Positions 3,101 to 62,353 of a DNA stretch of 64,000 nt are shown one piece after another. The notes beneath the pieces were generated by a model. It did not search any database. It saw only the letters and a list, made by a program, of their open reading frames with translations, and was not told the DNA's origin. Origin of the DNA: Squalus acanthias. Lineage: Eukaryota. The stretch covers positions 30,692,001-30,756,000 of the forward strand of contig CM059432.1 in assembly GCA_030390025.1 (NCBI GenBank), read 5' to 3'. The position numbers and the translations under genes were made by a program. How positions within the stretch are numbered: the stretch's first letter is position 1; each line of letters starts with the position of its first letter.

Positions 3101-4160
3101 AAGAGAGAGGAGCAGCACTTTAAGAGTTCCTGTGCCCATAGCTCACCCCCTGACCCGGGTGCACTCCCACTGTGTCGTATGCTGTGCAGGAGAAGCATTG
3201 TGATACTATGTTAATGAGCTGACCTTGCATTATGGTTTAAAATCAGTTCCGTGCAGGACTGGTCAACCCAACTCCTGAACAACAGTGAACCCAGCACCTC
3301 CAGACCATTATTATTTTAAAAAAATTAGCAATATGGAAAAAAAACTACTAATTAAAATACCACAACTAAACAAGCTCTGCAAAAATCATACAAAGCCAGT
3401 GCCACATTAAGAGCTCCATCGTCCATCAAGTGTACCTTGCTCCCATTGCCATTCAGCGCCATTCACAACTCCTCAGATAATGAAGCAGTCCATGCCCGCA
3501 TGCAGCAAGACCTGGACGACATTCAGGCTTAAGCTGATAAGTGGCAGGTAACTACCACCCCTTGACATTCAACGGCATTAGCATCGCCGAATCCCCCACC
3601 ATCAACATCCTGGGGGGCACTATTGACCAGAACCTTAACTAGACCAGCCACATTAAATACTGTGGCAACAAGGGCAGGTCAGAGGCTGGCAATTCTGCAG
3701 CGAGTGTCTCACCTCCTGACTCCCCAAAGCCTTTCCACCATCTACAAGGCACAAGTCAGGAGTGTGATGGAATACTCTCCACTTGTCTGGATGAGTGCAG
3801 TTCCAACAACACTCAAGAAGCTCAACACCATTCAAGACAAAGCAGCCCGCTTGATTGGCACCCCATCCACCACCTTAAACATTCAATCCCTCCACCACTG
3901 TCGGACAGTGGCTGCAGTGTGTACCATCTACAAGATTCACTGCAGTAACTCGCCAAGGCTTCTTCGGCAGCACCTCCCAAACCCATGACCTCTACCACCT
4001 AGAAGGACAAGGGCAGGAAGCGCATGGGAACACCATCACCTCCAAGTGCCCCTCCAAGTCACACAGCATCCTGACTTGGAAGTATATAGCCGTTCCTTCA
4101 TCGTCGCTGGGTCAAAATCCTGGAACTCCCTCCCTAACAGCACTGTGGGAGTACCTTCAC

Positions 4161-7100
4161 CATAGAAACATAGAAGATAGGAGCAGGAGTAGGCCATTCG
4201 ACCCCTCGAGCCTGTTCCGCCATTTAATGAGATCATGGCTGATCATCCAAATTCAGTACGCTGTCCCTGCTTTCTCCCCATATCCCTTGATCCCTTTAGC
4301 CTTAAGAAATATATCTAACTCCTTCTTGAATATATTTAATGAATTGGCCTCAACTGCCTTCTGTGGCAGAGAATTCCACAGGTTCACCACTCTCTGGGTG
4401 AGAAAATTCTTCCTCATCTCAGTCCGAAATGGCTCACCCCTTATCCCCAGACTGTGACCTCTGGTTCAGGACTCCCCCACCATCGGGAACATCCTCCTGC
4501 ATCTAGTCTGTCTAGTCCTGTTAGAATTTTATAAGTTTCAATGAGATCCCCTCTCATTCTTCTAAACTCTAGGGAATATAAGCCTAATCGACCCAATCTC
4601 TCTTCATACGTTATTCCTGCCATCCCAGGTATCAATCTGGTGAATCTTCGCTGCACTCCCTACATGGCAAGAACATCCTTCCTCAGATAAGGCAACCAAA
4701 ACTGCACACAATACTCAAGGTGTGGTCTCACCAAGGCCCTGTACAACTGCAGCAAGACATCTGTGCTCCTGTACTCGAATTCTCTCGCTATGAAGGCCAA
4801 CATACCATTTGCCTTCTTAACCGCCTGCTGCACCTGCATGCTTACCTTCAGCGACTGGTGCACAAGGACACCCAGGTCTCGTTGCACTTCCCCATTTTCC
4901 CAATCTATTGCCGTTCAGATAATAATCTGTCTTCCTGTTTTTGCCGCCAAAGTGGATAATCTCGCATTTATCCATATTATACTGCATCTGCCATGCATCT
5001 GCCCAATCACCCAACCTGTCCAAATCATACTGGAGTTTCTCTGCATCCTCCTCACAGCACACACGCCCACCCAGCTTTGTGTCGTCTGTAAACTTGAAGA
5101 TATTGGCCCAGAAATTAGACTTCGATGGTTGCCGCGGGGGTAAGGATCCCCCGCGATATCGCACTCCACGCCTGCCTTTATGGTTCGGGCCCACACGAAC
5201 TTCTGCTCCTGGGCCTCTCCCTGGTGCCGACGCGCAGTGTTTGCGTGTCCCAGAGGCGCAGTTAGTTCGATGCGACCTCTGGGATCATGTGGGCCAGTTA
5301 GAGCCAATGGCAGCACACCATCTTTCATTCATAGTTTTGACAGAAGAACTGTCAAAACTATGAATACAACTTGCCCCCAAAAGAACAGCTAAACCTCAAT
5401 TAAATTAAAAAAAACATCACATTAATAAAATAACTATAGTTAAATAAATTAACCACTTTAAACAAAAATCTAAATTTTTGACAAAATTTTAATTCTTATT
5501 AAAAGTTATAAAAATAAACTTACCTTTCTTTAAAGTCTCTAAAAAAGATAAACCTGTTGAAAAAAATGTAAAATAATACTTAATTAACTACTTACCTTGT
5601 TAAAAGGGGGTCTTACGCCTCCTTTTTTCATGTGTAAAATCTTCAATACTTACCCTCGCGTTCAAACCTGAAAAAAAAACCTAAGTGTGCTGCGTGCGCA
5701 CAGCCTGTAGTGCACACGCGGTTCACTTAGGAACCACCCCCTTCGCAATATCGGAAGTGCCGGTTTCCCGCGCATGCGCAGTGCATGCAGGAAACCGGCA
5801 CTTCGGGACCGAATACGGGTGAGTACACAGTGCGTACTCTCCCGTATTCGACCGAATTTCTGGGCCATTACATCTAGTTCCCTCGTCTAGATCATTAATA
5901 TATATTGTGAATAGCTGGGGTCCTAGCACCGATCCCTGCGGTACCCCACTAGTCACTGCCTGCCATTCGGAAAAAGACCCATTTATTCCAACTCTTTGCT
6001 TCCTGTCTGCCAACCAGTTCTCTATCCAAGTCAGTACCTTACCCCCAATCCCATGTGCTTTAACTTTGCACGCTAATCTCTTATGCGGGACCTTATCAAA
6101 AGCCTTCTGAAAGTCCAAATACACCACATCCACTGGTTCTCCCTTATCTATTCTACCAGTTACATCCTCAAAAAATTCCAGTAGATTAGTCAAGCATGAT
6201 TTACCTTTTGTAAATCCATGTTGACTTTGTCCGATCCTGTCACTGTTTTCCAAGTGCTCTGCTATTACATCTTTTATAATGGACTCTAGCATTTTCCCCA
6301 CTACCGATGTCAGGCTTACCGGTCTATAATTCCCCGTTTTCTCTCTACCACCTTTTTTAAATAGTGGGGTTACATTAGCTACCCTCCAATCCATGGGAAC
6401 TGTTCCAGAGTCTATAGAATTTTGGAAGATGACCAGCAATACATCTACTATTTCTAGGGCCACTTCCTTAAGTACCCTAGGATGTAGATTATCAGGCCCT
6501 GGGGATTTATCGGCCTTCAATCCCTTCAATTTCCCTAACATCATTTCCCTACAAATACTGATTTCATTCAATTCCTCCCTCTCATTAGACCCTATGTTCC
6601 CCGACATCTCTGGGAGGTTATTTGTGTCCTCCTTTGTGAAGAAAGAACCAAAGTATGTATTTAATTGGTCAGCCATTTCTTTGTTCCCCATTATAAATTC
6701 CCCTGATTCTGACTGCAAGGGACCTATGCTTGACTTCACCAATTTTTTTTTCTTCACATATCTATAGAAACTTTTACAGTCAGTTTTTATGTTCCCTGAA
6801 AGCTTACTCTCATATTCTATTTTACCCCTCTTAATTAATCCCTTTGTCCTCCTTTGCTGAATCCTAAATTGGTCCCAATCCTCAGGTTTGCTGCTTTTTC
6901 TGGCCAATTTATATGTCCTCTCCTTGGATCTTATGCTATCCCTAATTTCCCTTGTTAGAAACGGTTGAGTCACCTTTTTTGTTTTATTTTTATGCCAAAC
7001 AGGGATGAACAAATTCTGTAGTTCATCCATGTGATCTTTAAATGTTTGCCATTGCCTATCCACCGTCAACCCTTTAAGTAATGCTCCTCAATCCATCCTA

Positions 7101-7390
7101 GCCAACTCGCGCCTCATACCATCGTAGTTTCCTTTATTTAAATTCAGGACCCTAGTCTCTGAGTCAACTACTTCACTCTCCATCTTAATGAAGAATTCAT
7201 ATTATGATCGCTCCTCACCAAGGGGCCTCGCACAACAAGATTGCTAATTAATCCTTTCTCATTACATAATACCCAGTCTAAGTTGGCCTGATCTCTAGTT
7301 GGTTCCTCGACATATTGGTCCAGGAAACCATCCCGTATACTCTCTAGGAATTCCTCCTCCACAGTATTGTTACTAATTTAGTTAGCCCAA
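4161..7390 (-). mobile_element. 5'-truncated CR1 LINE (ORF2 endonuclease end and RT), interrupted by a MITE
   Basis: ORF 5723-7069 with [35 protein letters not shown]-terminal RRNFFTQRVVNLWNSLP-type motif; TTTCTATG-type tail; TCAC repeated at both junctions. Confidence 0.95.
5105..5866. mobile_element. Harbinger-type MITE, ~750-bp family, copy 1
   Basis: TIRs GGCCCAGAAATT / AATTTCTGGGCC; TSD ATT; the CR1 sequence rejoins when it is removed. Confidence 0.9.
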
Positions 7391-8195
7391 TCACTACACG
7401 GACTGCTGCGGTTCAAGAAGGCAGCTCACCACCACCTTCTCAAGGGCAACTAGGGACGGGCAATAAATGCTGGCCTTGCCAGCGATGCCCAGATCCCATG
7501 AACGAATAAATAAATAATTCCAAATGGGTATACAAGGAAAAGAGGGAACCAAGGTCAAATCACATGGAATTGTGCATGATGCTTGAAATCTGGGGCCTTA
7601 ATGAGGCTGAGGTGAAAATGGTTGTAAGTACTAGTGCTGTGAATTTCTTTGGGGCTTCTCCCGCTCTACTGCCATAACTTTAGCGTATCTTCTGCATAAG
7701 TGTGTGCAAAATAGGGGGGGTAGATTTTCACCTGTGCCCATTTGTGCAGAGGCAGGGCGTGCCTGAACCAAAAGGCCCGAGGATCACCAGAAATCAGCCC
7801 TCAGGCCTGATCTACATATTTTAGAAACATCAATTTCAGGCCGCATGCCCTCAGGTAAGTTCTGACAGGAGGTTTGGAGCGAGTGACGGAGGGGCCGATG
7901 CGAGGTATGTGGAGTCGGAGAGTTACTCCTGCTCCTCCTGGCTCCACAGAAAGATATTTTTCAAAAAAAATTATAAACAAACTTACATTTAGTTGGCAGC
8001 TGCAGGGGCCACTTAGGAATCCTGACCGGGGCAGGCCTGATGCCTGCATGATAACAAATTTTTTGAGGTGTCCTTTAACAGGCATTACATCCCTTGTTAA
8101 CATAGTCAGAAGGTCATGGGTTCAAGTCCAACTCAAGAGATTTGAGGGCATAATCTAAGCTTAAACTCTGGTATACTACTGAGGGAATACTGCAT

Positions 8196-10416: not shown

Positions 10417-11054
10417 TTATAACAGTGACTACACTTCAAAAGTACTTCATTGGCTGGAAAGCATTTTAGGACGGCCTGAGGTCGTGAAAGGCACTATATA
10501 AATGCAAGTTCCTTTTTGAGATAGAAATATACATTGTATTCCAAGCTCGAGGCTTAGCTGAATGTATGAACTGCATGAGTTCTTCCATCACAGTTTATGA
10601 CAACATATTGTCTTTCCTTTCCTTAGTTTTAAAGTTATATCATATGCCTTGCAGGCATTCAGTCAGTTTCAGTTAATCTTTGTGCAGTTTACTTGCTTTC
10701 ACTAAAGTTTGAGGCTATATATATAAGTTATAACTGTGCCAGAAATCTTCGTAACCCATGTGGCTTAAGCGAATGTTGCAATTGACGACACTCTCTTACT
10801 TAAAATAAATCACCACACATACGAGTTAAGTTTAAGAGTCAATATATTCCTGGACGTTGCCAGGATATGAGAGTACTGAGTATATAGAGCCGATTTTAAC
10901 TTGGGCTGGGAATCGAGGGGCTGAAGCTGCAGCGGACCATTTGCAACCACCACCCCCACCCCCCCCCGTCGCCCCCGAGCATGAAACCTTGGTGATTTTA
11001 AATCCCAGGCCTCATTTACAAGCCCCGACTAAGATGCCTGCCCAAAGCCCAACA

Positions 11055-27802: not shown

Positions 27803-28977
27803 TCATTTGAAGCGGAGTCTGATGAGGTGGTCACGGACCGCCCTTCCGCAAGGCCGATTGAGTGGCTGCCTCCTCCCTCGACCCTGTTCCTCCTCCTCCC
27901 CGTCCTCCCCGTCCTCCTCCTCATCTTCTTCTTCTTCCTCCTGAGGTGGTCCCGCAATCCCTGGTGGCAAGGGCTGGGCCCTCATGATGGCCAAGTTGTG
28001 GAGCATGCAACTGACCATCATGAAAAGGGACAACTGCTCAGCCGAGTACTGGAAGGCTCCTCCCGAGTGGTCAAGGCACCGGAACCGTTGCTTCAGCAGG
28101 CCAATGGTCTGCTCGATGATGTTCCTGGTGGCAGCATGGCTCTCATTATATGAGTGCTGGGTATGAGAGTTGGGGTTGCGGAGGGGCGTCATGAGCCAGC
28201 TGGAGAGTGGATAGCCCATGTCTCTGAGCAGCCAGCCGTGAGCTTGATGTGGTAGCTGGAAGAGTGCTGACACACCGGTCTGGCGCAGGATGAAGGCATC
28301 ATGCCTGCTGCCAGGATAGCGGGCATTCACATTGAGGATTCGCTGTCTGTGGTTGCACACCAACTGCACGTTAAGTGAGTGGTAGCCTTTGCGGTTACGG
28401 AAGATCTCAGGATTGTTATGCAGTGCCCGCAAAGCCACGTGGGTGCAATCAATGGTGCCCTGCACCATGGGTAATCCTGCTATCCTGGAAAAGCCACAAG
28501 CACACTTGTCCTGCTTCTCTCTGGTGATGGGGAAGGAAATGTAATCCCTTCTCCTACTGTAGCGAGCCTCTGTAACCTTCCAGATGCAGCGATGGATGTC
28601 GAGCTGCGAGATGTTAGCTATATCTCCTGTTGCAGACTGGAAGGATCCGCTGGTGAAGAAATTGAGGACGACGGTGACCTTGACTGCCAATGGAAGAGCC
28701 GTGGTCACCCTGGTCTGAGGCTAGATGTCCTGTTGCAGGGGGTGGCAGAGTTCTGTGACCACCTCCTTGGTGAAGGAGGGCCTTCTAGTACACTGCTCCT
28801 CGCTTAATTGGAGGCAGGGGAAGTGCTCTCGGAATACCCTTGGACGGTAAGGCCTCCTGTTGAGAGCCCTCATGCCCCTCCTCCTCCCTCTGCGCACATG
28901 TTCCATCTTTCTCGCTTCCTCCGCTCCCTCTGCCATAGATCCTGGAGGGCGAGGTTGACTAGCAGTACAGCCCCCAT
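27803..28977 (-). pseudogene. Harbinger DDE transposase (HARBI1-like family); N-terminus frameshifted, C-terminal 301 aa open
   Basis: GSFQSATGD, GTIDCTH, NRKGYHSLNVQLVC, YPGSRHDAFIL, LLRDMGY, IEQTIGLLKQRFRCL, CMLHN and acidic tail. Confidence 0.92.
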
Positions 28978-32210: not shown

Positions 32211-34216
32211 AGCAGATTGGTAGGGATGCTGAGGTGCTGCCCCGGGAGAGTGGCAGTGGGTCAGTGCAGCAGGAACCTGCTGTCCTCTCTCAGGCTGACA
32301 GCATTCCTGCTCCCACCACTGCCACTCCGCCATTGCCCTTGTCGCTGCCTGTAATCCAATCAGGCCAGACTGCCGCCACCCAAACTAAGGTGGTGTAGTG
32401 TACAGCCAGGCCTTCCAGGCTCAGAGCTGCTCGAGGGCATCCTGCACTGACACTCAGCAGCCTTCCACCAGCCCTGCTGCAGCCACCGGGGATAGACTAG
32501 AAGGAGCAGTAGATTCGAAAAAGGCATTGTAAAGAGGGGAAGTAAGGGTTTGCACAATGGTGATTAGTTAATATTGTTGTATATATATGTTTAATGAATG
32601 TTGATAAATTTATTAATGGAATTTTGCAGAATTTGTGCTGTCTCTCATTTCAGCTTTGTGCTGTGATATGGCATGCAAAATGGATGGAATAATGGGGATG
32701 TGGTGAGCAACTGGGATGTGGGGTAGACCTTATTGGAACCGCAGTCTGATGAGGCGGTCATTGACCGCCCTTCCAGAAGGCCGATTGAGTGGCTGCCTCC
32801 TCCCTCGCTGTTGTTCCTCCTCCTGGTGCTCCTCCTCCTCCTCTTCTCCCTCTTCCTCCTCCTGAGATGATCCCACGATGCCTGGTGGCAATGGCTGGGT
32901 CCTCATGATGACCAAGTTATGCAGCATGCAGCATACCACCACGAAAAGGGACAACTGCTCAGCCAAGTACAGGAAGTCCCCTCCCGAGCGGTAAAGGCAG
33001 CCGAACTGTTGCTTGAGCACTCCGATGGTCTGCTCGATGATGTTCCTGGTGGCGGCATGGCCAGGTGGAGATTGGATAGCCCTTGTCTCCGACCAGCCAG
33101 CCGCGAGCTGGTCTGGAGCAGGATGAAGGCATCGTGGCTGCTTCCAGGATAGCGGGCATTGATGGTGAGGATTCGCTGTCTGTGGTCGCACACCAACTGG
33201 ACATTAAGTGAGTGGTAGCCTTTGTGGTTACGGAAGAACTCAGGATTGTTACGGGGTGCTCGCAAAGCGACGTGGATACAGTCAATTGCACCCCGCACCA
33301 TGGGGAAGCCCACTATTCTGGCAAAGCCACATGCACGCTCATCCTGCTTCACTCTGGTGATGGGGAAGGAAATGTAGTCCCCTTCTGTAGGGAGCCTCTG
33401 TGACCTCCCAGATGCAGCAATGGACGGCGAGCTGCAAGATGTTAGATATGTCTCCTGTTGCAGGCTGGAAGGATCCGCTGGCGTAGAAATTGAGGGAGAC
33501 GATGACCTTGACTGCCACTGGGAGTGGTCCTGATCTGAGGCTCGAGGGCTGGCTGCAGGAGGTGGCAGAGCTCTGTGACCACCTCCTTGGTGAAGCGGAG
33601 CCTTCTAATACACTGCTCCTCAGTTAAATTTATGTAGAAGAAGTGCTTCCAGAATACCCTGGGAGGATAAGGCCTCCTGTTGAGAGCCCTCCTCCTTCTG
33701 GCCACATTTTCCAATGTTTGTCTCTGCCTCTGCTGCCTCCGATGTTGATGCTGGAGGGCGAGGTCGAGGGCCAGTGCAGCCCCCATTAACGTAATCAAGT
33801 GTAGGACTTTGAAATCTTAGCAGAATGAAATGACAAATTTTTAGCAGGCAGAACACCCCTGAAAGTAAGAAACTTTTAACTCACTGAAAACGGCTGTTTT
33901 GCAGTGTGAAACTGAGAAGGCCGCATTGATTGGCCACTAAAATGAAACCGGATGTTGATCCCTTTAAATACCGCTCCTACAGCGGCCATCTGAATGCATA
34001 ATGCCTCCTCTTCCTGCCATTGTTCAGGCGAGGCGCTAAGGCAGGGGCGACAGTCAATTTTGCATCTGGGCCGTTAACGGGGCGTTCCAAACTCATTGAG
34101 GTCACGATCTGGCAGCCGCTAAATGTTAGCGCCAGCGCTAAATCCCGGGTGAATTTCACGTGCGGCATTGGATTCGCCACTAACGGGAGGCGCTAACATG
34201 CCGAATATCTCTGCCC
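32211..34216. mobile_element. Truncated Harbinger (Myb-like 3' end, transposase pseudogene, one terminus)
   Basis: Homologous to ~26190-29418; terminus GAATATCTCTGCCC; other end missing. Confidence 0.85.
32730..33786 (-). pseudogene. Harbinger transposase, frameshifted and internally deleted
   Basis: GAIDCIH, YPGSSHDAF, WLVGDKGY and IEQTIGVLKQ spread over different frames. Confidence 0.88.
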
Positions 34217-38759: not shown

Positions 38760-39690
38760 TAACCTGCAGCCTTTGACACGGTTGACCAGGGTTGACCACA
38801 CACCACCTTCCTCCAACGCCTCTCCTCTGCCTTCCAGCTGGGTGGAACTTCACTCACCTGGTTCCATTATTATCTATCCAGTTGTAGCCAGAGCATTACC
38901 TGCAATGGCTTCTCTTCGTGCTCTTGCACCGTTACCTCTGGAGTCCCCCAAGGATCTATCTAAATTGTCAGACTGTTTATCTGATATGGGTATGGTAGCA
39001 TAGTGGTTATATTACTGGACTAATAATCCAGAGGACTAATGATCCAGAGACATGAGTTCAAATCCCACCACGGCAGCTGGGGAATTTAAATTCAATTAAA
39101 TAAATCTGGAATAAAAAGCATCAAGTATCAGTAAGGGTGACCATGAAACTACCATCTGGTTTACTAATGCCCTTATATAGGGAAGGAAATCTGCTGTCCT
39201 TACCTGCTCTGGCCTATGTGTGGCTCCAGACCCCCAGACCCACAGCAATGTGGTTGACTCTTAACTGCCCTCTGAAATGGCCAAGCAACTATCTAACCTC
39301 TACAAAGAAGTGGTTCAAGAAGGTGGCTCACCACCACCTTCAAGGGCAATTAGGAATGGGCAATAAATGCTGGCTTTTCCAGTGATGCCCACATCCTATG
39401 AACGAATAAAAAAAAAAATCCAGTACTCAAGGAAAAATTTCCTCCAACTAAATATTGGGAAGACCGAAGCCATTGTCTTCGGACCCCACCACAAACTTCA
39501 TTCCTTAGCTACCAACTCCATCCCTCTTCCTGGCAACTGTTCGAGGCTGAACCAGACTATTGCAACCTTGGTCTCGTATTTGACTCCAAGAGGGGCTTCC
39601 GACCATATATCCGCGACATCACTGAGACCGCCGTAACATCTGCTGCTGAAACCCTCATCTATGCCTTTGTTACATCTAGACTTGAATATT
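38760..39690 (+). mobile_element. Internally deleted L2 fragment hosting a SINE
   Basis: Matches the reverse complement of parts of 8980-10416; NFLQLNIGKTEAIVFGP. Confidence 0.8.
38988..39417 (+). mobile_element. tRNA-headed SINE made of the 5' and 3' ends of the LINE at 59065-62190
   Basis: A-box TAGCATAGTGG (38996-39006); B-box AGTTCAAATCC (39055-39065); LINE 3' end and poly(A); host L2 rejoins with AT duplicated. Confidence 0.85.
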
Positions 39691-46152: not shown

Positions 46153-46693
46153 AGTAAATCCATGATCCTTGGCTCACAATCAGCAGACTGCACTCAATGG
46201 AAGTGCAAGTCAGAGATAGTGCTACAAAATTGTAGCCCCAATACCCCAACCCACACCCCCATTGAGCATATGATCGTGAATTTACACCCTTTAGATCACG
46301 TCACTTCATAACTGTAATTGGTGTGACGCCATCACATGATGAAATCCCTTGACAGCAATCAATTTCCTGTTTTCAAAATATCTAATTCTACCATCTTCCC
46401 ATTACAACACTTAGGCCTAGAAATTGGATAAGGCCCAAAAACGGGGGTGGGGTCCCGGCCAGTGCTATTTGCCTGTGCCTCTTCTAAGTGGTGCAGGCAG
46501 CACGCAAAATTCAAGCTTTTTGCGCCGTAACATGATTGGCGCGCTGATCTCAGCACTAAACGTGCAGCTGATTGGCTTAGTGCTCAACGGGGGAGCCAAT
46601 ATCGGGTGCATTCTAATGGCCAATAAAGTTTGGCCTCAGCTCTCTCCACTACTCAAAGGACAGGTGCTTTGTTGCAGAAGCACCTCATTGTCA

Positions 46694-48522
46694 ATGGCCC
46701 AACAACCAAGAGGCAGAGACAGACGATTATCCGATGCTGCGCTGGAGGCCTTGGTCCTGGGGGGTCCAACAAAGGTGGTCTGTCCTTTACCCGCAGGGAG
46801 GCAAGACACCATCCAACCTCGTCAGCAGAAGGATTTGGGAGGAGATCGCACAATCCGTTACGGCCACCAGTGTTGTCCCAAGGACCTGGATTCAGTGGCG
46901 CAAAAAGTTTAATGACCTCACACGGCTATTCAAGGTGAGTGAAGGCTTCAGCAAATGCCATATCCCACCATCTGCACCACAAACCTCACACACTGCTCAA
47001 TGCATTATACGCCCATCGATCACCTACCAACAATCTCTAGCTATCACCACTCATACCTCACAATCAAGGCTTCACTTCACCCTCACTAATTACCACTGCT
47101 GCAACACTCACACCCACATCTCACACCTTGCACACACTGACAATTATTCAACCATGACAGGCACATCATCCAAACACATTTCACCACACACACTTCCCTT
47201 TCTCTTGCAGGCAAAGATGGCACAGAACAGACCTGAGCAACAACAGATCGGAGGCAGCCAAGCCAGGATTGAGATCCTGACTGACCTCGAGGAATCCACC
47301 TTTGAAATTATTGGAGGGGCAGTAACAGAGTCCGTGGCCAGCGGTGAAGTTGAAACCATTGCTGATGATGACGGTATGGTCATACCTAATCCTTCTTCTC
47401 ACATCCCACTTCCCCCTCACCCCACAATTTCTTCTCACTTATAAGCTGCTGATGGTGTATGAGTGGATATCTTGCTTTCCTCCCTCCCCTCACCACAACC
47501 CAACCCTTGCGCCTTTCTGCTTTCAGATACCCAAGAAGTGCCACCAGCACAGCCTATCCCTTATCATCATTAACAAACTGATGGAGGAGACGAAGAAGAA
47601 GAAGATGAAGAAGAAATACCAGCAGGGAATTTGACACTTGCAGACACCAGCTCAGAAAATGGCATTGTGCACTTTAGAGGCGGGATCTGCACATGGTGAG
47701 TCACTTGGAATGAGTGGGCTGCAGCCAGGCCAGGGAGAAAGGGTAGCTATGGTGTCAGCTTCCCGGTGGGCGATTTCACGCACGTGTTCTGCTCCACAGG
47801 ACTCAGATGGTGACCTCGAAGGGGCGGACTTCAGAAGAAGGGCGATGAGCATACACACGGAAATGCTGGGTGCAATGGCAAGCCTGCCAGAGAGCCTCTT
47901 GTCAGTGTCAAGGAGCATAGAGGAATCCAGCTCCAACATTGCACGGGGCTTTGCTCAGAGCTTGCAACCCATTATTTCCAGGATGAAAATGATGTACAAC
48001 TCCAGGAGAGACCTTCTGGACCCACGGATGATGCTGGGTGTGATGGGTGATCTTGCAGCTTCCATTACAGCACAGGTGGAAGTGACCCAACATCTCACTT
48101 CTGCAGTGGAAGCTCAGATTGCTGCCATCATCGCTGGGTTTATGAGTCTCGAAAGGGTGTCGCAGCAGTCCAGCAATCTGTCCTCCAGCAGATTGCTAGG
48201 AATGCTGAGGTGCTGCCGCTGGAGAGTGGCAGTGTGTCTGGAGCAAGAACCTGCTGTCCTCTCTCAGGAGGACAGCATTCCTACTCCCACCACTGCCACT
48301 GCGCCATTGCCTACTAGCCAGCCAGCCTAGACTATTGCCGCCCATTCCGAGGTGGTGCATCTATAGCTGGGCCTTCTAGGTCCAGAGCTGGTCGAGGTCA
48401 TCCTGGAAGGCCATCTGTAGTCTCCCCCACTGAAAGTCAGCCACTGGGTGAGCACTGCGAGTACTAGAGTAGGTAAAGGCACACGAAAGACAGCCACGAA
48501 GGGAATACACAAGGGTGAATAG
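46694..48522 (+). pseudogene. Harbinger Myb/SANT-like gene (exons ~46694-46934, 47211-47373, 47527-48522), frameshifted
   Basis: LSDAALEALV...IWEEIAQSVTATSVVPRTWIQWRKKFNDL; GT-AG introns at positions equivalent to those in 24731-26543. Confidence 0.82.
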
Positions 48523-52900: not shown

Positions 52901-53163
52901 TGGATTTTTCTCTTATTGAGAAGTAACGTTGGGAGAGTGGGAACAGCTCTGAGGAGTTTCCTGGCCAATGTCACTCAAAAGTGAAACTACATCTGGCTGG
53001 GGTGTTAACCTGAGAAGGTAATTCTGAATAACTCAGACTTTAACAATGTCAACACTGGCTTTTTGACACTAGCGTTGAATGCTGGCCAAATAAAATAATT
53101 GATAGAAAAAAAAATAATAATAATTAATTAACTAATCAAATAAATAAAGAAGGTTAGATAGAC

Positions 53164-55169
53164 ATGGCAGTGCAGGTGGTGTGCTGTAACTGCAGCATGT
53201 GGGAGTTTGTGGAGACCAGCGAGACCCCGAGCAACCACATCTGCAGTAAGATGGTTGTGGTGGTTGAAGGTCAATCATCACAGCCCCAGTACATCGCTGC
53301 AGGAGTTCCTCAGGGCAGTGTCCTAGGCCCAACCATCTTCAGCTGCTTCATCAATGACCTTCCCTCCAACATAAGGTCAGAAATGGGGATGTTCGCTGAT
53401 GACTGCACAGTGTTCAGCACCATTCGCAACTCCACAGATAATGAAGCAGTCCATGCCCGCATGCAACAAGACCTGGACAACGTTCAGGCTTGGGCTGATA
53501 AGTGGCAGGTAACATTCACGCCACAGAAGTGCCAGGCAATGACTATCTCCAACAAGCGAGAGTCTAACCACCTTCCATTGACATTCAATGGCATTACCAT
53601 CGCCGAATCCCCCACTATCAACATCCTGGGGGTCACCATTAACCAGAAACTTAACTGGACCAGCCACATAAATACTGTGGCAACAAGAGCAGGTCAGAGG
53701 CTAGGTATTCTGCGGCGAGTGTCTCACCTCCTGACTCCCCAAAGCCTTTCCACCATCTACAAGGCACAAGTAAGGAGTGTGATGGAATACTCTCCGCTTG
53801 CCTGGATGAGTGTAGCTCCAACAACACTCAAGAAGCTCGACACCATCCAGGACAAAGCAGCCCACTTGATTGGCACCCCATCCACCACCTTAAACATTCA
53901 CTCCCTCCACCACCGGCGTACCGTGGCTGCAGTGTGTACCATCTACAAGATGCACTGCAGCAACTCGCCAAGGCTTCTTCGGCAGCACTTCCCAAACCCG
54001 CGACCTCTTCCACCTAGAAGAACAAGGACAGCACGCGCATGGGAACACCACCACCACCAAGTTCCCCTCCAAGTCACACACCATCCTGACTTAGAAGTAT
54101 ATCGCTGATCCTTCATCGTCGCTGGGTCAAAATCCTGGAACTCCCTACCTAACAGCACTGTGGGAGTACCATCACCACACGGACTGCAGCGGTTCAAGAA
54201 GGTGGCTCACCACCACATTCTCAAGGGCAACTAGGGATGGGCAATAAATGCTGGCATTGCCAGCGACGCCCTGATCCCATAAACAAATTAAAAAAAAGTG
54301 TCTGCAGCTCGAGGAACTTTGGCTCAGAGTTGTTGAGCTGGAGTCTGAGGTGCAGACATTGCGGAGCCTCAGTGAGGGGGAGGGTTACCTGGACACTTTG
54401 TTCCAGGAGGCAGTCACACCCCTTAGATTAAGTAGTACTTTAGAGTTTGTCAATGGTCAGGGACAGGAGGGTGTGACCGCGAGTCAACAAGGTATGGGGA
54501 CCCAGAATGTAGTGATGGAGGAGTCTCAGCCCTTGACTTTGACCAACAGGTATGAAATACTTGTTACCTGTGGGGATGAAAACAAGGACTGCAGGGTGGA
54601 TGAACAAACTGACCATGGCATCATGATGCAGGAGGCCATACAAATGGAGGTAGTGAAAATGAACGTGGTAGTGGTAGGGGACAGTATAGTCAGAGGGATA
54701 GATACTTCTCTGCAGCCGCGACCAGGAGTTCCGAAGGTTGCGTTGCCTGCCTGGTGCCAGGGTAAAGGATGTCTCCTCGCGGCTGGAGAAGAACTTGGGG
54801 TGGGAGGGGGAGGATCCAGTTGTCATGGTACATGTAGCAACCAACAACATAGATAGAACTAGGAATGAGGTTCTGCTGAGAGAGTTTGAGGAGCGAGGGT
54901 CAAAATTAAAATGCAGAACCTCACAGGTAATAATCTCTGGATTTTTACCTGAGCCACATACAAATTGGCAAAGGGACAAACAGATTAGAAGGTTAAATGC
55001 GTGGCTCAAAGAGTGGTGTGGGAGGCAGGGGTTTCAATTCATGGGGCAGTGGCACCAGTACTGGGGAAAGAGGGAGGTGTTCCGTGGGGACGGGCTCCAC
55101 TTAAACCGGGCTGGGACCACAGTCCTGGCAAATCGAATAACTGAGGCAGTAGATAGGACTTTAAACTAA
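53164..55169 (+). pseudogene. CR1 ORF1 (Cys zinc finger, leucine zipper, SGNH esterase), interrupted at 53251-54297
   Basis: VCCNCSMWE...HICSK|CLQLEELWLRVVELE; VVGDSIVRG; HVATNN; DGLHLN. Confidence 0.88.
53251..54297 (+). mobile_element. Well-preserved 5'-truncated copy of the tRNA-headed LINE family
   Basis: [37 protein letters not shown]; poly(A) end; splits CR1 ORF1. Confidence 0.92.
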
Positions 55170-55329: not shown

Positions 55330-58160
55330 GGAAAAATAGAAAAAAGTTAAAGCTAAAGGTACTATATCTGAATGCATGAAAGATTCGCAACAAAATAGAT
55401 GAATTAATAGCGCAGATAGAAATAAATGGGTTTGATTTAATAGCCATTATAGGTTGCAGAGTGACCAAGGTTGGAAACTAAATATTCCAGGATATTTGAC
55501 TTTTAGAAGAGACAGGCAGAATGGAAAAGGAGGAGGTATAGCCTTGATAATAAAGGAGGGAATAAAGACAGTAGAGAGAAAGGATTTTGGCTTAGAAAAA
55601 CAAAATGTAGAATCAGTTTGCATGGAGCTAAGAAACACCAAGGGGCAGAAAACACTAGTGGGAGTAGTCTATAGGCCCCCAAACAATGGTTGTAGTGTCA
55701 GGCAGAGTATAAATCAGGAAATTAGAGATGCATGTAACAAGGGTAATACAGTAATCATGGTGGACTTTAATTTTCATATTGACTGGGCAAACCAAATTTG
55801 CAGAAATAGTGCAGAGGAAGAGTTCATGGAATGCATTCAAGATAGTTTTCTAGATCAGTATGTCAAGGAACCAAAGAGGGAATTGGTTATTTTAGATCTA
55901 GTACTGTGCAATGAGACAGGGTTAATTAATAACTTTGTAGTAAAGAAGCCTCTGGGGAGCAGTGATCATAATATGATAGAATTTTATGTTGCGTTTGAGA
56001 GTGATTTAGTTAAATCTGAAACTAGGGTCCGAAACCTGAACAAAGCAAACTATGTAGGTATGAGAGACAAGTTGGCTAAGGTAGGTTGGGAAACTAGATT
56101 AAAAGATATGACAGTAGAAAAGCAATGGCAAACATTTAAAGAAATAATTCATAATTTGTAACGAATATACATTCCCTTAAGGAATACAAACACCACAGGA
56201 AAAATGGTCCAACCGTGGCTAAGAAAAGAAATTAAAGATAGTATTGGATTAAAGGAAGAGGCTTATAATGTTGCCAAAAAGAATAGTAAGCCTGAGGTGT
56301 GGGAGGATTTTAGAATTCAGCAAATGAGGACCAAGAAATTGATAAAGAAAGGGAAAATAGAATATGAGAGTAAACTAGGGAGAGACATAAATACAGACTG
56401 AAAAAGCTTCTATAGGTGTGTAAAAAGGAAAAGATTAATGAAAGTAAACATGAGTCCCTTACAGGCTGAGTCAGGAGAAATTATAATGGGGAATAAGGAA
56501 ATGGCAGGGAAATTAAACAAATACTTTGTGTCTGTCTTCACGGAAGAAGACGCAAAAATCCTCCTGGAAATAGTGGCGAACCAAAGGTTTAGCGAAAATG
56601 AGGAACTGAAAGAAATTAGTATTAGTAAAAAAAATAGTACTGGAGAAATTAATGGAACTGAAAGCCAATAAATCTCCTGGACCTGATGGCCTACATCCTA
56701 GGATTTTAAAAGAGGTGGCTATAGAGATGGTGCATGAATTGGTTATCATCTTCCAAAATTCCATAGATTCTAGAACGTTTCCCGTGGATTGGAAGGTACC
56801 AAATTTAACCCCACTATTTATGAAAGGAGGGAGAGTGAAAATGGGGAACTACAGACCAGTTAGCTTGACGTCAGTAGCAGGGAAAATGTTAGAATCTATT
56901 ATTAAGGATGTGGTAACAAGGCACTTAGAAAATAATAATAGGATTGGGCAGAGTCAACACAGATTTATGAAAGGAACATCATGTTTGACGAACCTGTTAG
57001 AGTTTTTTGAGGTTGTAACTAGCAGAATAGACAAGGGGGAACCAGTGGATGTGGTACATTTGGATTTTCAGAAGGTATTGGATAAGGTGCCACACAAGAG
57101 GTTATTAAACAAAATTAGGGTTCATGGGATTGGGGGTAATGTACTAGCATGGATTGAGGATTGGTTAATGGACAGAAAACAGAGAATAGGAATAAATGGG
57201 TAATTTTTGGGTTGGCAGGCTGCAACTAGTGGGGTACCGCAAGGATCAGTGCTTGGGCCTCAGCTACTCACAATCTACATCAATGATTTGGATGAGGGGA
57301 CCAAATGTAATATATCCAAGTTTGCTGATGATACAAAGCTAGGTGGGAATGTAAGTTGTGAGGAGGATGCAAAGAGGCTTCAAGAGGATATAGACAGGCT
57401 AAGTGAATGGGCAAGAACATGGCAAATGGAATATAATGTGGAGAAATGTGAAGTTATCCACTTTTGTAGGAAAATTAGAAAAGCAGAGTATTTTTTAAAT
57501 GGTGAGAGATTGGGAAATGTTGGTGTTCAGAGGGACCTGGGTGTCCTTGTACATGAATCATTGAAAGTTAACATGCAGGTTCAGCAAGCAATTAAGAAAG
57601 CAAATGGTATGTTAGCCTTTATTACACGAGGATTTGAGTATAAGAGTAAAGAGTTATTACTGCAATTATATAGGGCCCCTGGTGAGACCACACCTGGAGT
57701 ATTGTGTACAGTTTTGGTCTCCTTAACTAAGGAAGGATATACTTGCCATAGAGGGAGTGCAACGAAGGTTCGCCAGACTGATTCCTGGAATGGGGGGATT
57801 GTCCTTTGAGGAGAGATTGAGTAGACTAGTCCTATATTCTCTAGAGTTTAGAAGAATTAGGGGTCATCTCATTGAAACATACAAAATTCTTTCAGGGCTT
57901 GACAGGTTAGATGCAGGGAGGATGTTTCCCCTGGCTGGGGAGTCTAGAACCAACGGTTACTGTCTCAGAATAAGGGGTCGGCCATTTAGGACTGAGATGA
58001 GGAGAAATTTCTTCACTCAGAGGGTGGTGAATCTTTGGAATTCTCTACCCCAGAGGGCTGTGAAGGCTCAGTCGTTGAGTATATTCAAGACAGAGATTGA
58101 TAGGTTTTTGGATATTTAGGGAATCAAGGGATATGGGGATAGTGCAGGAAACTGGAGTTG
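55330..58160 (+). pseudogene. CR1 ORF2 (APE endonuclease and RT) with multiple stops and frameshifts
   Basis: [48 protein letters not shown]. Confidence 0.92.
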
Positions 58161-58744: not shown

Positions 58745-61700
58745 TACATAGGGACAGGAGTAGACCGTACAGACCCTCGAGCCTGTTCTGTCATTCAATC
58801 AGATCATAGCTGAACTGTACCTCAATTCCATTTACCCGCCTTTGATCGATATCCCTTGATACCTCTAGCTAGCAAAGATTTATCGATCTCAGTCTTGAAA
58901 ATTCCAATTGATAGCAGTCTTTTGGAGACATAATTTCACCTTTCCATGACTTTTTGTGTGAAAAAGTGCTTCCTGCTTTCACTCCTGAATGGCCTCGCTC
59001 TATTTTTTAACATTGTGCCCGTCATGTTCTGGATTCCCCAACCAGAGGTAATAACTTCTCAGCATTTTTTTAGTTTATTCATTCATGGAATGTGGGCGTC
59101 GCTGGCAAGGACAGCATTTATTGCCCATCCCTAATTACTCTTGAGAAGATAGTGGTGAGCCATGACTTGAACCACTGCAGTCCGTGTGGTGAAAGTACTC
59201 CCACAGTGCTGTTAGGTGGGGAGTTCCAGGATTTTGAACCAGCGACGATGAAGGAACGGCAATATATTTCCAAGTCAGGATCATTCGTGCCGTGGAGGGG
59301 AACTTGGAGGTGGTGGTGTTCCCATGCTCCTGCTGCCTTTCTCCTTCTAGGTGGTACAGGTCGCGGGTTTGGAAGGTGCTCTCGAAGAAGCCTTGGAGAG
59401 TTGCTGCAGTGCATCTTGTAGATGGTACACACTGCAGCCACGGTGCGCTGGTGGTCGAGGGAGTGAATGTTTAAGGTGGTGGATGGGGTGCCAATCAAGT
59501 GGGCTGCTTTGTCCTGAATGGTGTTGAGCCTCTTGAGTGTTGTTGGAGCTGCACTCATCCAGGCAAGTGGAGCGTATTCCATCACACTCCTTACTTGTGC
59601 CTTGTGGGTGGTAGAAAGGCTTTGGGGAGTCAGGAGGTGGGTCACTCACCACAGAATATCCAGCCTCTGACCTGCTCTTGTAGCCACAGTATATATGTGG
59701 CTGGTCCAGTTAAGTTTCTGGGCAATGGTGACTCCCAGGATGTTGCTTGTGGGGAATTTGATGATGGTAATGCTATTGAATGTCAAGGGGAAGTGGTTAG
59801 ACTCTCTTGTTGGAGATGATCATTGCCTGGCACTTGTGTGGCCCAAATGTTACTTGCCACTTATCAGCCCAAGCCTGGATGTTGTCCAGGTCATGTTGTA
59901 TGCGGGCACGGACTGCGCCGTTATCTGATGAATAGCGAATGGAACTGAACACAATGCAATCATCAGCGAACATCCCCACTTCCCCAGCTGAAGTTGTTTG
60001 GGCCTAGGAAACTGCCCTGAGGAACTCCTGCATTGATGTCCTCGGGCCGAGATGATTGGCCTCCAACAAACATGATCATCTTTCTTTGTGCTAGGTATGA
60101 TTCCAACCAGTGGAGAGTTTTCCCTGATCCTCATTGACATCAATTTTACTAGGGTTTCAAATGCTGCCTTGATGTCAAGGGCAGTCACTCTCACCTCACC
60201 TCTGGAATTCAGTTCTTTTGTCCAATTTTGGACCAAGGCTGTAATGAGGTCTGGAAGCCAAGTGGTCCTGGTGGAACCCAAACATTAGCATTGGTGAGTA
60301 AGTGCCACTTGATTGCACTGTCAACGACACCTTCCATCACTTTGCTGATGATTGAGAGTAGGCTGATGGAGTGGAAAGTGGCCAGATTTAATTTGTCCTG
60401 CTTTTTGTGGACAGGGCATATCTGGTCAATTTTCCACTTTGTCGGGTAGACACCAGTGTTGTAGCTGTGCTGGAACAGCTTGGCTAGAGCACGGCTAGTT
60501 CTGGAGCACAGGTCTTCGGCACTACAGCCGGGATGTTTTTGGGGCCCATAGCCTTTGCTGTATTCAGTTCGCTCAGCCATTCCTTGACATCACGTGGAGT
60601 GATTCGAATTGGCTGAAGACTGGTATCTGTGATGGTGGGGATCTCAGGAGGAGGCCAAGATGGATCATCCACTCGGCACGCATGACTGAAGATGGTTGTG
60701 AATGCTTCAGTCTTGACTTTTGCACTTATATGCTGGGCTCCTCTATCATTGAGGATAGGGATTGTCATGGAGCCTCCTCCTCCCGTTAGCTGTTTAATTG
60801 TCCACCACTATTCACGACTGAATGTGGCAGGACTGCAGAGCTTTGATCTGATCCATTGGTTGTGGTATCGCTTAGCTCTGTCTATAGCATGCTGCTTCTG
60901 CTGTTTAGCATGCATGCTGTGTTGTAGCAACACCAGGTTGACACCTCATTTTTTAGGAATGCCTGGTGCTGCTCCTGGCATGCTCTTCTACACTTCAATT
61001 GAACCAGAGTTGGTCCCCTGGCTTGATGGTAATGGTAGAGTGAGGGATATGCCGGACCATGAGGTTACAGATTGTGGTGGAATTTAATTCTGCTGCTGCT
61101 GATGGCCCACAGCACCTCATGGATACCCAGTTTTGAGCTGCTAGATCTGTCCTGAATCTATCCCATTTAGCACGATGGAGGGTGTCCTCAGTGTGAACAT
61201 GGGACTTCGTCTCCATAAGGACTGTGCAGTGGTCACTCCTACCAATACTGTCATAGACAGATACATCTGCGACAAGTAGATTGGTGAGGACAAGGTCAAG
61301 AAGGTTTTTCCCTCACCATCTGCCGCAAGACCAGTTTGGCAGTTATGTCGTTCAGGACTTGGCCAGCTCAGTCAGTAGTAGTGCTACCGAGCCACTCTTG
61401 GTGACGGGCATTGAAGTGCCCCACCCAGAGTACATTCTGTGCATTTGCTGTCCTCAGTGCTTCTTCCAAATAGTGTTCAAAATGGAAGAATACTGAATCA
61501 TCAGCTGAGGGAGGGTGATAGGTTGTAATCAGCAGGAGGTTTCCCTGCCCATGTTTGACCTGATGCCATTAGACATTATGGGGTCCAGAGTCAATGTTGA
61601 GGACTCCCAGTGCCACTCCCTCTCCACAGTATATAACTGTGTTGAATCCTGTGGGACAGGACATACCCAGGGATTATGATGGAGGAGTCTGGGATGTTAG

Positions 61701-62353
61701 CTGATAGGTCTGATTCTGTGAGTATGGCTATGTCAGGATATTGCTTGACAAGTCTGTGGGACAGCTCTCCCAATTTTGACACAAGTCCACAGATGTTAGT
61801 GAGAGGACTTTGCCGGGTCGACTGGGCTGGGTTGTGTCCGAGTCCGATGCCTAGGTTGACCCGTACGGTTTTATTATTATTATACCTTTTTGTAGTGGTT
61901 TGATACAACTGAGTCGCTCGCTAAGCCATTTCAGAGGGCTGTTAAGAGTCAACTGCATTGTTGTTGGTCTGAAGTCACATATAGGCCAGACTGGGAAAAG
62001 ACGACAGGTTTCCTTCCCTAAAGGACATTAGTGAACCAGTTGGGTTTTTATGACTAATCATGGTCACCATTACTAATACTAGCTTTTTGTTCCAGATTTA
62101 TTTAATTAACTGAATTCAAGTTCACAAAATGCCATGGTGGGAATTGAACCCCCGAATGACTAGTCCAGTAACATAACCAATATGCTACCATATCTACTCT
62201 ATTGACTCCTTTTATCATTTTAAAATTTCAACTTGATCAACCTTCAACCTTCTAAACTAAAAGGAATACATCCCAGGTTTATGCAACATATCCTCATAAT
62301 TTAACCTGTTAAGGTCTGGGATAATTCTGGTGCATCTGCGCTGTACACTCTCC
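58745..62353 (-). mobile_element. Old CR1 3' fragment (58745-59064 and 62191-62353) split by the tRNA-headed LINE
   Basis: CR1 3' UTR and C-terminal sequence continue on both sides of the insertion. Confidence 0.75.
59065..62190 (-). mobile_element. Near full-length single-ORF endonuclease-RT LINE with a tRNA-type 5' head (CR1/L2 group, clade unresolved), decayed
   Basis: A-box 62187-62177; B-box 62150-62140; endonuclease start NICGLVSKLGEL...PDIAILTES; SISLLSIISKVME, ALDIKAAF, MFADDC; A-rich tail. Confidence 0.88.

Follow-up and report, generated by a model that had tools for sequence, protein, structure and literature searches.

LINEs are usually viewed as RNA polymerase II (Pol II) genes and SINEs as RNA polymerase III (Pol III) parasites that use the enzyme of a LINE. 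The HE1 SINE and the HER1 LINE, members of the V-SINE superfamily in sharks and rays, are reportedly such partners, said to have been described by Ogiwara et al. in 1999 and 2002. The tail and body motifs of the shark family analyzed here seem to resemble those of HE1/HER1, a name that we apply to it tentatively, from this apparent resemblance and a published table. That table (PMC3747384) lists HE1 as a V-SINE of sharks and rays with a tRNA head and with HER1 as its partner LINE. Like HE1/HER1, the family studied here combines a tRNA-related SINE with a partner LINE that has the same 3′ tail. However, whereas only the tail is common to HE1 and HER1 as listed, the coding LINE of the shark family also bears the tRNA-like head and the body of the SINE at its 5′ end. 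T-run depletion is not mentioned in the passage of PMC3747384 that deals with HE1/HER1.

According to passages in Kojima (2018, PMC5786205), SINEs are unable to encode protein, LINEs are transcribed by Pol II, and Bov-tA, AfroSINE, CoeSINE4, and other SINEs derive from bipartite RTE or Vingi LINEs. The shark family follows the bipartite systems as portrayed there in that the SINE body corresponds to the 5′ UTR of the LINE and the SINE tail to its 3′ end, so that the SINE resembles an internally deleted LINE. In those systems the tRNA head is found on the SINE only, whereas in the shark family it is also found on the full-length coding LINE. The same text states that R1, R2, and R4 likely rely on transcription of the target rRNA gene. 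Cassandra, Helenus, and Ajax are presented in a section of PMC10886601 as LTR retrotransposons that carry 5S- or tRNA-like sequences. They share with the shark family the presence of a Pol III-type small-RNA-gene sequence inside a non-SINE retrotransposon, but as presented they are non-autonomous LTR elements, whereas the shark family is coding and non-LTR.

The window, i.e. the whole stretch of DNA that was analyzed, comprises 64,000 nt of Squalus acanthias (GCA_030390025.1, CM059432.1, positions 30,692,001–30,756,000, forward strand). Three copies within it, beginning at 53251, 3452, and 59066, are members of a single LINE family that is ∼3.2 kb long and present in high copy number (Table 1). 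The translation of 53158–54108 matches Pfam RVT_1 (E = 2e-20), and the 53251 copy is 91% identical to the ORF of the genomic copy L054 (tblastn). The minus-strand copy is a single element in the order tRNA-like head, SINE-like body, APE-RT ORF, and tail, and its part at 59066–60067 is 85% like the 53251 copy. Its coding region is disrupted by frameshifts and stops; the equivalent of the stop codon is a TAG at 59133–59131.

Table 1. Copies and parts of the LINE family in the window, with positions counted from its first nucleotide.
Feature	Position	Strand	Remarks
5′-truncated LINE copy	53251..54297	+	C-terminal half of RT (FADD motif), remaining ORF, ∼75-nt 3′ UTR with AATAAA, A-run
Partial LINE copy, RT C-terminal region	3452..4162	+	blastn, 85% to 53413–54177
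Near-full-length decayed LINE copy	59066..62192	-	∼3.1 kb, 90% identity to consensus, aligned with 39 genomic copies
tRNA-like head	62140..62192	-	A-box-like TAGCATATTGG, B-box-like GGTTCAATTCC; internally deleted relative to consensus
Body in common with the abundant SINE form; 5′ UTR of the LINE	61903..62139	-	7,343 first-look candidates
LINE-specific leader and APE-RT coding region	59131..61902	-	tblastn with P0002
3′ tail common to LINE and SINE forms	59066..59135	-	GGGATGGGCAATAAATGC...GAATAAA, then A-run
SINE-form copy	38991..39416	+	blastn; head and body fused to the last ∼20 codons of the LINE and the tail
Tail-only family fragment	7390..7514	+	blastn, 89.6% to the final 125 nt of the 53251 copy

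The full element measures 3.1–3.4 kb. A majority-rule consensus built from 22 near-full-length copies (3,289 nt, 20.1% T) opens with a head that resembles tRNA-Thr and contains A and B boxes, followed by a body of ∼250 nt shared with the SINE, one APE-RT reading frame of ∼950 codons, and a short tail also shared with the SINE. The RT domain is recognized in the 739-codon frame of L054 (Pfam RVT_1, E = 5.8e-39) and in P0002, and the APE domain in L045:930–2024 (PF14529, E = 1.3e-13; PF03372, E = 5.7e-7). With its length and its APE-RT frame, the element therefore falls outside the definition of a SINE (<∼600 nt, non-coding). It nevertheless resembles tRNA-derived SINEs in its A and B boxes, its start at tRNA position +1, its LINE-derived tail, its very high copy number, and the absence of internal T4 from its family consensus, and differs from them in its 3.2 kb and its encoded APE-RT. 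The SINE form itself is defined by a joint from 59136 to ∼61902 in contigs of sequencing runs. Four runs that are only presumed to be from RNA have contigs in 30 of 30 bins, and such contigs are blind to the start, end, strand, and polymerase of an RNA.

A first look gave 6,314 candidate places for the LINE, 40 of which were scored. The copies are dispersed, with starts scattered over reference positions 69–429 and common ends at ∼3187–3200; head and tail are both present in 10 of the 40, spaced 3,080–3,402 nt apart. The 120 best protein matches to the family protein reach at most 40% identity, and other LINEs in the window 27–29%.

The family has its true 5′ terminus at the tRNA-like head, which bears the A and B boxes. 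When 39 copies selected on their coding-region start alone were aligned upstream, the alignment entered the SINE-like body in 37 and reached the head in 28. Of the 20 best matches to the head, 19 run on into the ORF and 16 begin within 8 nt of one base, at the junction of (G)GGAAC and GGTAGCATAGTGG. The element has a fixed 5′ terminus at tRNA position +1, which also holds for the SINE form. Type-2 promoters have the consensuses TRGCNNAGTGG (A box) and GGTTCGANNCC (B box). Against these consensuses, the A box of the family, TAGCATAGTGG at +8, fits at 11 of 11 positions; the B box is GAGTTCAAATCC and, taken as AGTTCAAATCC, fits at 9 of 11. Two variants of the head occur, with and without an arm duplication of ∼26 nt. 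Among 59 loci of the family, ARAGORN recognized the head as a tRNA-Thr(AGT) in two (L068 and L154). ARAGORN and Rfam at gathering thresholds found no tRNA anywhere in the window, and the Rfam tRNA model gave no match to the head at E ≤ 1 in six loci. ARAGORN also returned no tRNA in the loci of 60 relatives, a blank that says little because most heads of the family itself escape the program.

A head at the 5′ end of many copies could also have been added repeatedly, by reverse transcriptase leaving LINE RNA for a SINE template inside the body that both have in common, in which case the master element would be headless and driven by Pol II and the shortage of T-runs would be unrelated. The ∼290 nt of body common to LINE and SINE would provide the homology for such switching. 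Moreover, no target-site duplications that could prove insertion of head and LINE in one step were found around 10 full-length copies, where the best word shared by the two flanks, of 4–7 nt, is at chance level. Clear target-site duplications are missing from many LINE clades, which makes their absence weak evidence. Against repeated addition, the 5′ ends cluster at the first base of the head and show no further peak where a headless element would begin. Moreover, among the 20 sequences closest to the head and body of a LINE copy, 19 are LINE copies rather than SINEs, which suggests that head and LINE diverge together. We consider template switching improbable.

The sequence-only reading had noted that the coding strand of the copy at 53251–54297 is free of TTTT and holds a single TTT. 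Indeed, its 1,047 nt contain 208 T (19.9%) and one T3+ run, at 53747 (GCCTTTCC). The same had been said of 3455–4160, where we count no T4 and one T3 (3732). In the decayed minus-strand copy, plus-strand A4 runs occur inside the element only at 61479, 61996, and 62126, and plus-strand A3+ runs are absent between 60380 and 61467, again as first described. Relative to base shuffles, the 53251 copy has one T3+ run versus 6.6 expected (P ≤ 0.005) and no T4+ run versus 1.3 expected (P = 0.27, not significant). The 3452 copy has one T3+ run versus 4.6, and the 3.1-kb copy has 13 versus 27.6, a count as low as which none of 1,000 shuffles gave, with three T4+ runs versus 6.3.

The shortage is also seen in the consensus, for which the occurrence of T4+ runs had been named as grounds for refutation. 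Its sense strand carries no T4+ and seven T3 runs, next to 16 A, 11 C, and 9 G runs of four or more. Base composition alone does not explain this, as base shuffles yield 21.1 ± 4.0 T3+ runs (P < 0.0005; 0 of 2,000 reach the observed count). Within the ORF, five T3+ runs compare with 11.6 expected under synonymous and codon-order shuffles alike (P = 0.004), and runs of A, C, and G match the codon-shuffle expectation. The ORF of the natural copy L054 behaves in the same way (5 versus 11.5, P = 0.001). Taken by itself, the absence of T4+ from the consensus is not significant or only weakly unlikely, with 4.3 runs expected from base (P = 0.01), 1.6 from dinucleotide (P = 0.17), and 1.9 from synonymous shuffles (P = 0.09).

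We then counted terminator motifs in the classes of non-canonical human Pol III terminators reported by Orioli et al. (2011, PMC3141230), in passages of which T3 alone and the TTGTT form of T2VT2 are nearly inactive as terminators. No T4+, T3VT2, T2VT3, T3VT, or TVT3 is found on the sense strand of the 3,289-nt consensus, and the terminator-like motifs that are left are two T2VT2, one of them TTGTT. For canonical and non-canonical motifs together, these two compare with 18.2 ± 5.1 in base shuffles (0 of 2,000 as low) and 9.3 ± 3.3 in dinucleotide shuffles (P = 0.01), and for the ORF synonymous shuffles predict 8.1 (P = 0.013). No depletion is seen on the antisense strand (71 motifs versus 61.9 expected). 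The T-run depletion is real, specific for the sense strand, and beyond base composition, dinucleotide content, and codon usage, with the dinucleotide control being weaker for T3+.

It is at this control that a more conventional explanation has to be weighed, in which the family is an ordinary Pol II LINE with an acquired, SINE-derived 5′ UTR, and the shortage of T-runs stems from composition, from codon or amino acid usage, or from a constraint on U-tracts at the RNA level (stability, premature 3′ processing, or fidelity of reverse transcription). Dinucleotide shuffles lower the expected T3+ runs of the consensus to 11.5 (P = 0.059), and the TT ratio of 0.72 indicates that a general shortage of TT together with T3 supplies much of the signal. 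T is scarce (20%) and C abundant in the family, which favors C-ending codons by ∼2:1 and uses few Phe, Leu, and Tyr residues; Phe makes up 2.1% of its residues versus 3.9 ± 1.2% in 120 protein relatives, with TTC and TTT codons at 16:3. An AATAAA directly adjoins the terminal A-run, which suits Pol II polyadenylation equally well, and a CpG-rich stretch lies just 3′ of the body. However, the shuffles that keep protein and codon usage still predict 2.3 times the observed T3+ runs and four times the observed terminator-like motifs, and the depletion is confined to T on the sense strand. Relatives with similarly low T (20–23%) have T3+ ratios of 0.80–1.65 versus 0.30 in the family. Further points against a Pol II element are three AATAAA hexamers within its first 350 nt and the 5′ end of the RNA at tRNA position +1, shared with the SINE form. 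On balance, we regard the Pol II explanation as rather unlikely.

Same-genome controls were five other RT-bearing LINE pieces inside the window, where the sequence-only reading had noted many sense-strand T4–T6 runs in CR1, L2, and Penelope ORFs. The five pieces have 5, 18, 2, 8, and 14 sense-strand T4+ runs, and in four of them the count reaches or exceeds expectation. Their terminator-like ratios are 0.92–2.03, and across 74 distant relatives the ratio has its median at 1.17 and never falls below 0.35, versus 0.11 for the family consensus and a median of 0.27 for its 22 decayed copies. Equal depletion is found in none of the 74 relatives, which may or may not carry a head, and in none of the five window pieces. 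The control LINEs are A-rich and the family is C-rich, so that a family-wide bias of other origin may be involved.

That the depletion is mere chance, or a striking feature picked after the fact, is very improbable. Many features had been scanned in the initial reading, the T4+ count is not significant on its own, and a comparison of shared and private T4 gains in the 22-copy alignment gave no signal (private/shared: T 17/6, A 20/11, G 13/3, C 19/0). The lack of a signal is put down to overly star-like relationships among the copies and to the location of shared gains at T3 sites, where change is prone to recur. Yet chance would have to reproduce counts of T3+ and of terminator-like motifs that none of 2,000 base shuffles attained, a depletion unequaled in the relatives and window pieces, and a terminator-like ratio that is still ≤0.60 in 20 of the 22 independently decayed copies.

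Selection for Pol III read-through is, in our view, the best explanation of the T-run depletion, with a probability of roughly 0.5. The sequence-only reading had proposed such selection, and the depletion on which it was built survives the checks on composition, relatives, and consensus, whereas Pol III transcription itself is a step that we infer. RNA polymerase III would transcribe the LINE from the internal type-2 promoter in the head. If so, active lineages had to lose terminators, and those still active would have purged sense-strand T-runs and T-rich degenerate terminators over the full 3.2 kb. The resulting uncapped LINE RNA would then be translated.

Pol III products are normally short RNAs. 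To our knowledge, neither kilobase-long natural Pol III transcripts nor translation of uncapped Pol III RNA in vivo is established. R2-type LINEs offer a precedent, as their RNA arises without a Pol II promoter of their own and presumably lacks a cap; similarly, no in-frame ATG is conserved upstream of the endonuclease domain in the shark family. R2 differs in being site-specific and ribozyme-released, whereas the shark family is dispersed and has its own candidate Pol III promoter. A literature search with subscription journals and Repbase Reports outside its coverage found no tRNA-headed coding LINE and no T-run depletion in a LINE. We tentatively suggest a wider scenario in which an autonomous coding LINE with a tRNA-Thr-derived internal promoter moved to Pol III, purged its canonical and degenerate terminators, and came to be translated from uncapped RNA without a conserved AUG; the abundant SINE would be its internal deletion form.

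If this is true, the line that textbooks draw between LINEs as Pol II and SINEs as Pol III elements would vanish, and LINE and SINE could be two forms of one element. The family would also provide a natural protein-coding Pol III messenger of ∼3 kb. The idea of a Pol III LINE is directly testable by standard transcription assays, and the density of terminator-like motifs per strand in each repeat family offers a simple genome-wide screen, by which the polymerase of a mobile element could be read from sequence composition alone.

The shortage of oligo-T on the sense strand of this LINE family is real, T-specific, and family-specific, and it exceeds what base, dinucleotide, and codon composition explain. 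By direct count, T4 is absent from the 53251–54297 copy (1,047 nt, 208 T, 19.9%), whose single run of three or more T (T3+) lies at 53747 in GCCTTTCC; the ∼3455–4160 copy has one T3 (3732) and no T4. In the minus-strand copy, plus-strand A4 runs within the element occur only at 61479, 61996, and 62126, and A3+ is absent between 60380 and 61467. These recounts reproduce those of the sequence-only reading (one TTT and no TTTT in the first copy, the second alike, and three T4 runs with a T3-free stretch at ∼60380–61465 in the 3.1-kb copy). It also describes many T4–T6 runs in CR1, L2, and Penelope ORFs of the window; five other RT-bearing LINE pieces have 2–18 sense-strand T4+ runs. We compared copies and LINE pieces with 1,000 base shuffles each. 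All five pieces show T3+ at or above expectation, and their terminator-like motifs (T4+ plus the non-canonical Pol III terminators T3VT2, T2VT3, T3VT, TVT3, and T2VT2) have observed/expected ratios of 0.92–2.03. T3+ is normal in the two intact control frames of the window (27 versus 28.4 and 19 versus 18.9 expected), where Phe makes up 3.7–4.2% of residues and TTT exceeds TTC.

Features of the window and their sense-strand T runs (observed/expected from base shuffles; single values, observed)
Feature	Position	Strand	T3+	T4+
Family copy (blastn)	53251–54297	+	1/6.6 (P ≤ 0.005)	0/1.3 (P = 0.27)
Family copy (blastn)	3452–4162	+	1/4.6	0/0.9
Family copy (blastn piece 59066–60067)	59066–62192	-	13/27.6 (no shuffle as low)	3/6.3
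Family tail fragment (blastn)	7390–7514			
Family tail fragment (blastn)	39309–39416			
SINE form of family	38991–39416			
RT-bearing LINE piece	17641–19995	-		5
RT-bearing LINE piece	4525–7087	-		18
RT-bearing LINE piece	9470–10417	-		2
RT-bearing LINE piece	20528–21925	+		8
RT-bearing LINE piece (APE/RT)	55436–57809	+		14
Apparent element flanking the first copy	53158–53250, 54298–54856	+		
Open frame starting in that flank (MAVQVVCCNCSMWEF...)	53158–54108	+		
193-codon frame, no Pfam match	54275–54856	+		
Two DDE_Tnp_4 (PIF/Harbinger-type) transposase frames and one Myb/SANT-like frame	27803–28720, 32903–33604, 46617–47444	-, -, +		

The first copy is apparently inserted in another element, and the 193-codon frame lies upstream of the APE/RT LINE. 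The DDE_Tnp_4 and Myb/SANT-like frames are probably remains of Harbinger-like DNA transposons.

Read on the minus strand, the 59066 piece extends unbroken upstream to ∼62192 and comprises a tRNA-like head, a ∼290-nt repeat, an endonuclease and reverse-transcriptase frame, and a tail. The ∼290-nt stretch has thousands of further occurrences (7,343 first-look candidates). Pfam RVT_1 matched the window copy and the genomic copy L054, and the endonuclease families PF14529 and PF03372 matched copy L045. In the SINE form, head and body are followed directly by the last ∼20 codons and the tail; it also appears as contig joints 59136 to ∼61902, skipping ∼2,765 nt. Contigs from the runs of four organisms (X1, X3, X8, and X11) hold the family over window positions 59000–62300 at full length and 80–99% likeness, and the family is therefore common to several species. 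Four loci (L063, L064, L065, and L067; contigs C630, C175, and two places on C9) gave near-duplicate alignments with identical N-terminal translations and likely reflect duplication of a genomic segment or of assembly pieces.

The head is part of the LINE itself. When the genome was queried with the coding-region start only (window 61300–61860, minus strand; 6,314 first-look candidates, 40 scored), the alignment of the 39 non-window copies, taken with flanks, extended upstream into the SINE-like body in 37 and to the head in 28; the remaining two are 5′-truncated at reference positions 422–429. Head and tail motifs are both present in 10 of the 40 copies, spaced 3,080–3,402 nt apart. Conversely, 19 of the best 20 matches to the window head and body continue into the ORF region, and the other (L160) is a SINE form. 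Sixteen of the 20 best head matches start within 8 nt of one base, with unrelated upstream flanks. The element start, (G)GGAAC/GGTAGCATAGTGG, is equivalent to tRNA position +1; it is followed by the A box at +8 and then by an anticodon-like arm (CTGGA-CTAGTAA-TCCAG), and the B box is GAGTTCAAATCC. Two head variants occur in the first 100 nt of L150–L169, with or without a ∼26-nt duplication of this arm that alters the spacing between the boxes. ARAGORN called tRNA-Thr(AGT) at the head in L068 and L154, in none of the other 57 family loci, and nowhere in the window, and the Rfam tRNA model did not match the head at E ≤ 1; the head is thus related to tRNA only as loosely as SINE heads usually are.

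The consensus, a majority of 22 aligned near-full-length copies (each 90.0–96.6% identical to it), is 3,289 nt long (A 27.8%, C 29.0%, G 23.1%, T 20.1%) and has one frame that is open for 904 codons. The N-terminal endonuclease sequence lies in another frame only because most copies are deleted in one deletion-prone stretch (consensus nt ∼600; window ∼61650–61690, minus strand), which is intact in copies such as L055, L045, and L051. Deletions of ∼10–40 nt that look independent occur between CCCACCGG and CACAGTGG in most of the 22 copies and give the majority consensus a false frameshift. An open frame of 739 codons persists in L054. No conserved in-frame ATG lies upstream of the endonuclease domain (61780–61905, minus strand, L031–L069, and L150–L169); such a codon is present, at varying positions, in only 11 of 56 copies. 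Going upstream into the SINE-like body, no stop interrupts the frame for ∼40–48 codons. The body contains an in-frame ATG-GCC-TAG, and L045 has GAG in place of its TAG (M-A-E-Q). Judged from these frames, translation may start at a non-AUG codon or in some other unusual way.

On its sense strand the consensus has 45 A, 48 C, and 39 G runs of three or more (16, 11, and 9 of four or more), versus seven T3+. T4+ runs, the observation that would speak against the sequence-only reading, are absent from its 3,289 nt. In 2,000 base shuffles of the whole consensus, none was as low for T3+ (21.1 ± 4.0 expected) or for terminator-like motifs (2 versus 18.2 ± 5.1); T4+ was expected 4.3 times (P = 0.01). 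Dinucleotide shuffles gave 11.5 T3+ (P = 0.059), 1.6 T4+ (P = 0.17), and 9.3 ± 3.3 terminator-like motifs (P = 0.01). Codon-shuffled controls of the ORF, as had been proposed, likewise show T3+ depletion: 5 versus 11.6 expected with synonymous shuffles (P = 0.004) and 11.5 with shuffled codon order (P = 0.004). T4+ was 0 versus 1.9 (P = 0.09) and 1.8 (P = 0.13), respectively, and terminator-like motifs 2 versus 8.1 with synonymous shuffles (P = 0.013). The claimed shortage beyond composition thus stands for T3+ and terminator-like motifs, whereas T4+ on its own is weak (P = 0.01–0.17). Runs of A, C, and G are at expectation in synonymous shuffles; with shuffled codon order, the sole non-T deviation is a somewhat low A3+ (29 versus 37.2, P = 0.02). 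The natural L054 frame behaves alike (T3+ 5 versus 11.5, P = 0.001). Phe accounts for 2.1% of residues in the family frame (TTC:TTT = 16:3), versus a mean of 3.9 ± 1.2% in 120 protein relatives, 2.5% of which are as low.

Thirteen relatives were aligned with the family, and a metagenome-contig scan with this alignment yielded 80 loci (24–41% identical), mostly more T-rich than the family. The 74 with N-free coding stretches of 800 nt or more (leaving out L076, L093, L098, L115, L116, and L149) have median observed/expected ratios of 1.05 for T3+ (5th percentile 0.78, minimum 0.54) and 1.17 for terminator-like motifs (minimum 0.35, L091), versus 0.30 and 0.15 in the family consensus ORF and 0.11 for terminator-like motifs in the whole element. 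Relatives with 20–23% T have T3+ ratios of 0.80–1.65. Even the 22 decayed family copies have medians of 0.47 (T3+) and 0.27 (terminator-like; range 0.00–0.98, ≤0.60 in 20). In the proposed comparison with headless relatives, none of the 74 is as depleted. ARAGORN found no head in 60 loci of relatives, but it also misses most family heads and is therefore little guide to whether the relatives bear one. The relative L091 (metagenome contig, 2,037 nt, 5′ end off the contig; 36% identity, T 20.3%, T4+ 0 versus 2.0 expected) may represent a second lineage sharing this T-run habit.

Besides T4+, human Pol III stops sub-optimally at T3VT2, T2VT3, T3VT, TVT3, and T2VT2, whereas T2GT2 and an isolated T3 have almost no activity (available text of Orioli et al. 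2011, PMC3141230). In the available text of Gao et al. 2017 (PMC5725217), the minimal terminator is T4, and termination becomes fully efficient only from T6 upward. The consensus sense strand contains no T4+, T3VT2, T2VT3, T3VT, or TVT3; two T2VT2 motifs are left, TTGTT and TTCTT. Equivalent motifs in A number 71 versus 61.6 expected, and T motifs on the antisense strand 71 versus 61.9. Several points count against a Pol III reading: the absence of T4 by itself is weak, T3 by itself is no terminator, and a general shortage of TT accounts for some of the signal (dinucleotide ratio 0.72; AA 0.99, CC 1.03, GG 1.23). In addition, we know of no precedent for kilobase-long Pol III messengers.

The family probably corresponds to the HE1 SINE/HER1 LINE pair of sharks and rays. 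HE1, with its LINE partner HER1, is tabulated for sharks and rays in PMC3747384. In the available text of Kojima 2018 (PMC5786205), SINE bodies derive from RTE or Vingi 5′ UTRs, SINEs cannot encode protein, and LINEs and bipartite LINEs are transcribed by Pol II; in contrast, the head here is borne by the coding LINE itself. We found no report of a tRNA-headed coding LINE or of T-run depletion in a LINE in the literature outside subscription journals and Repbase Reports. The anatomy and statistics behind the proposed selection for Pol III read-through stand as observed, whereas Pol III transcription of the family is something we infer from sequence, and any account of how an uncapped RNA would be translated is equally conditional. 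Taken together, the T depletion and an A/B-box head marking the RNA 5′ end make selection for Pol III read-through the simplest coherent explanation, to which we give roughly even odds.
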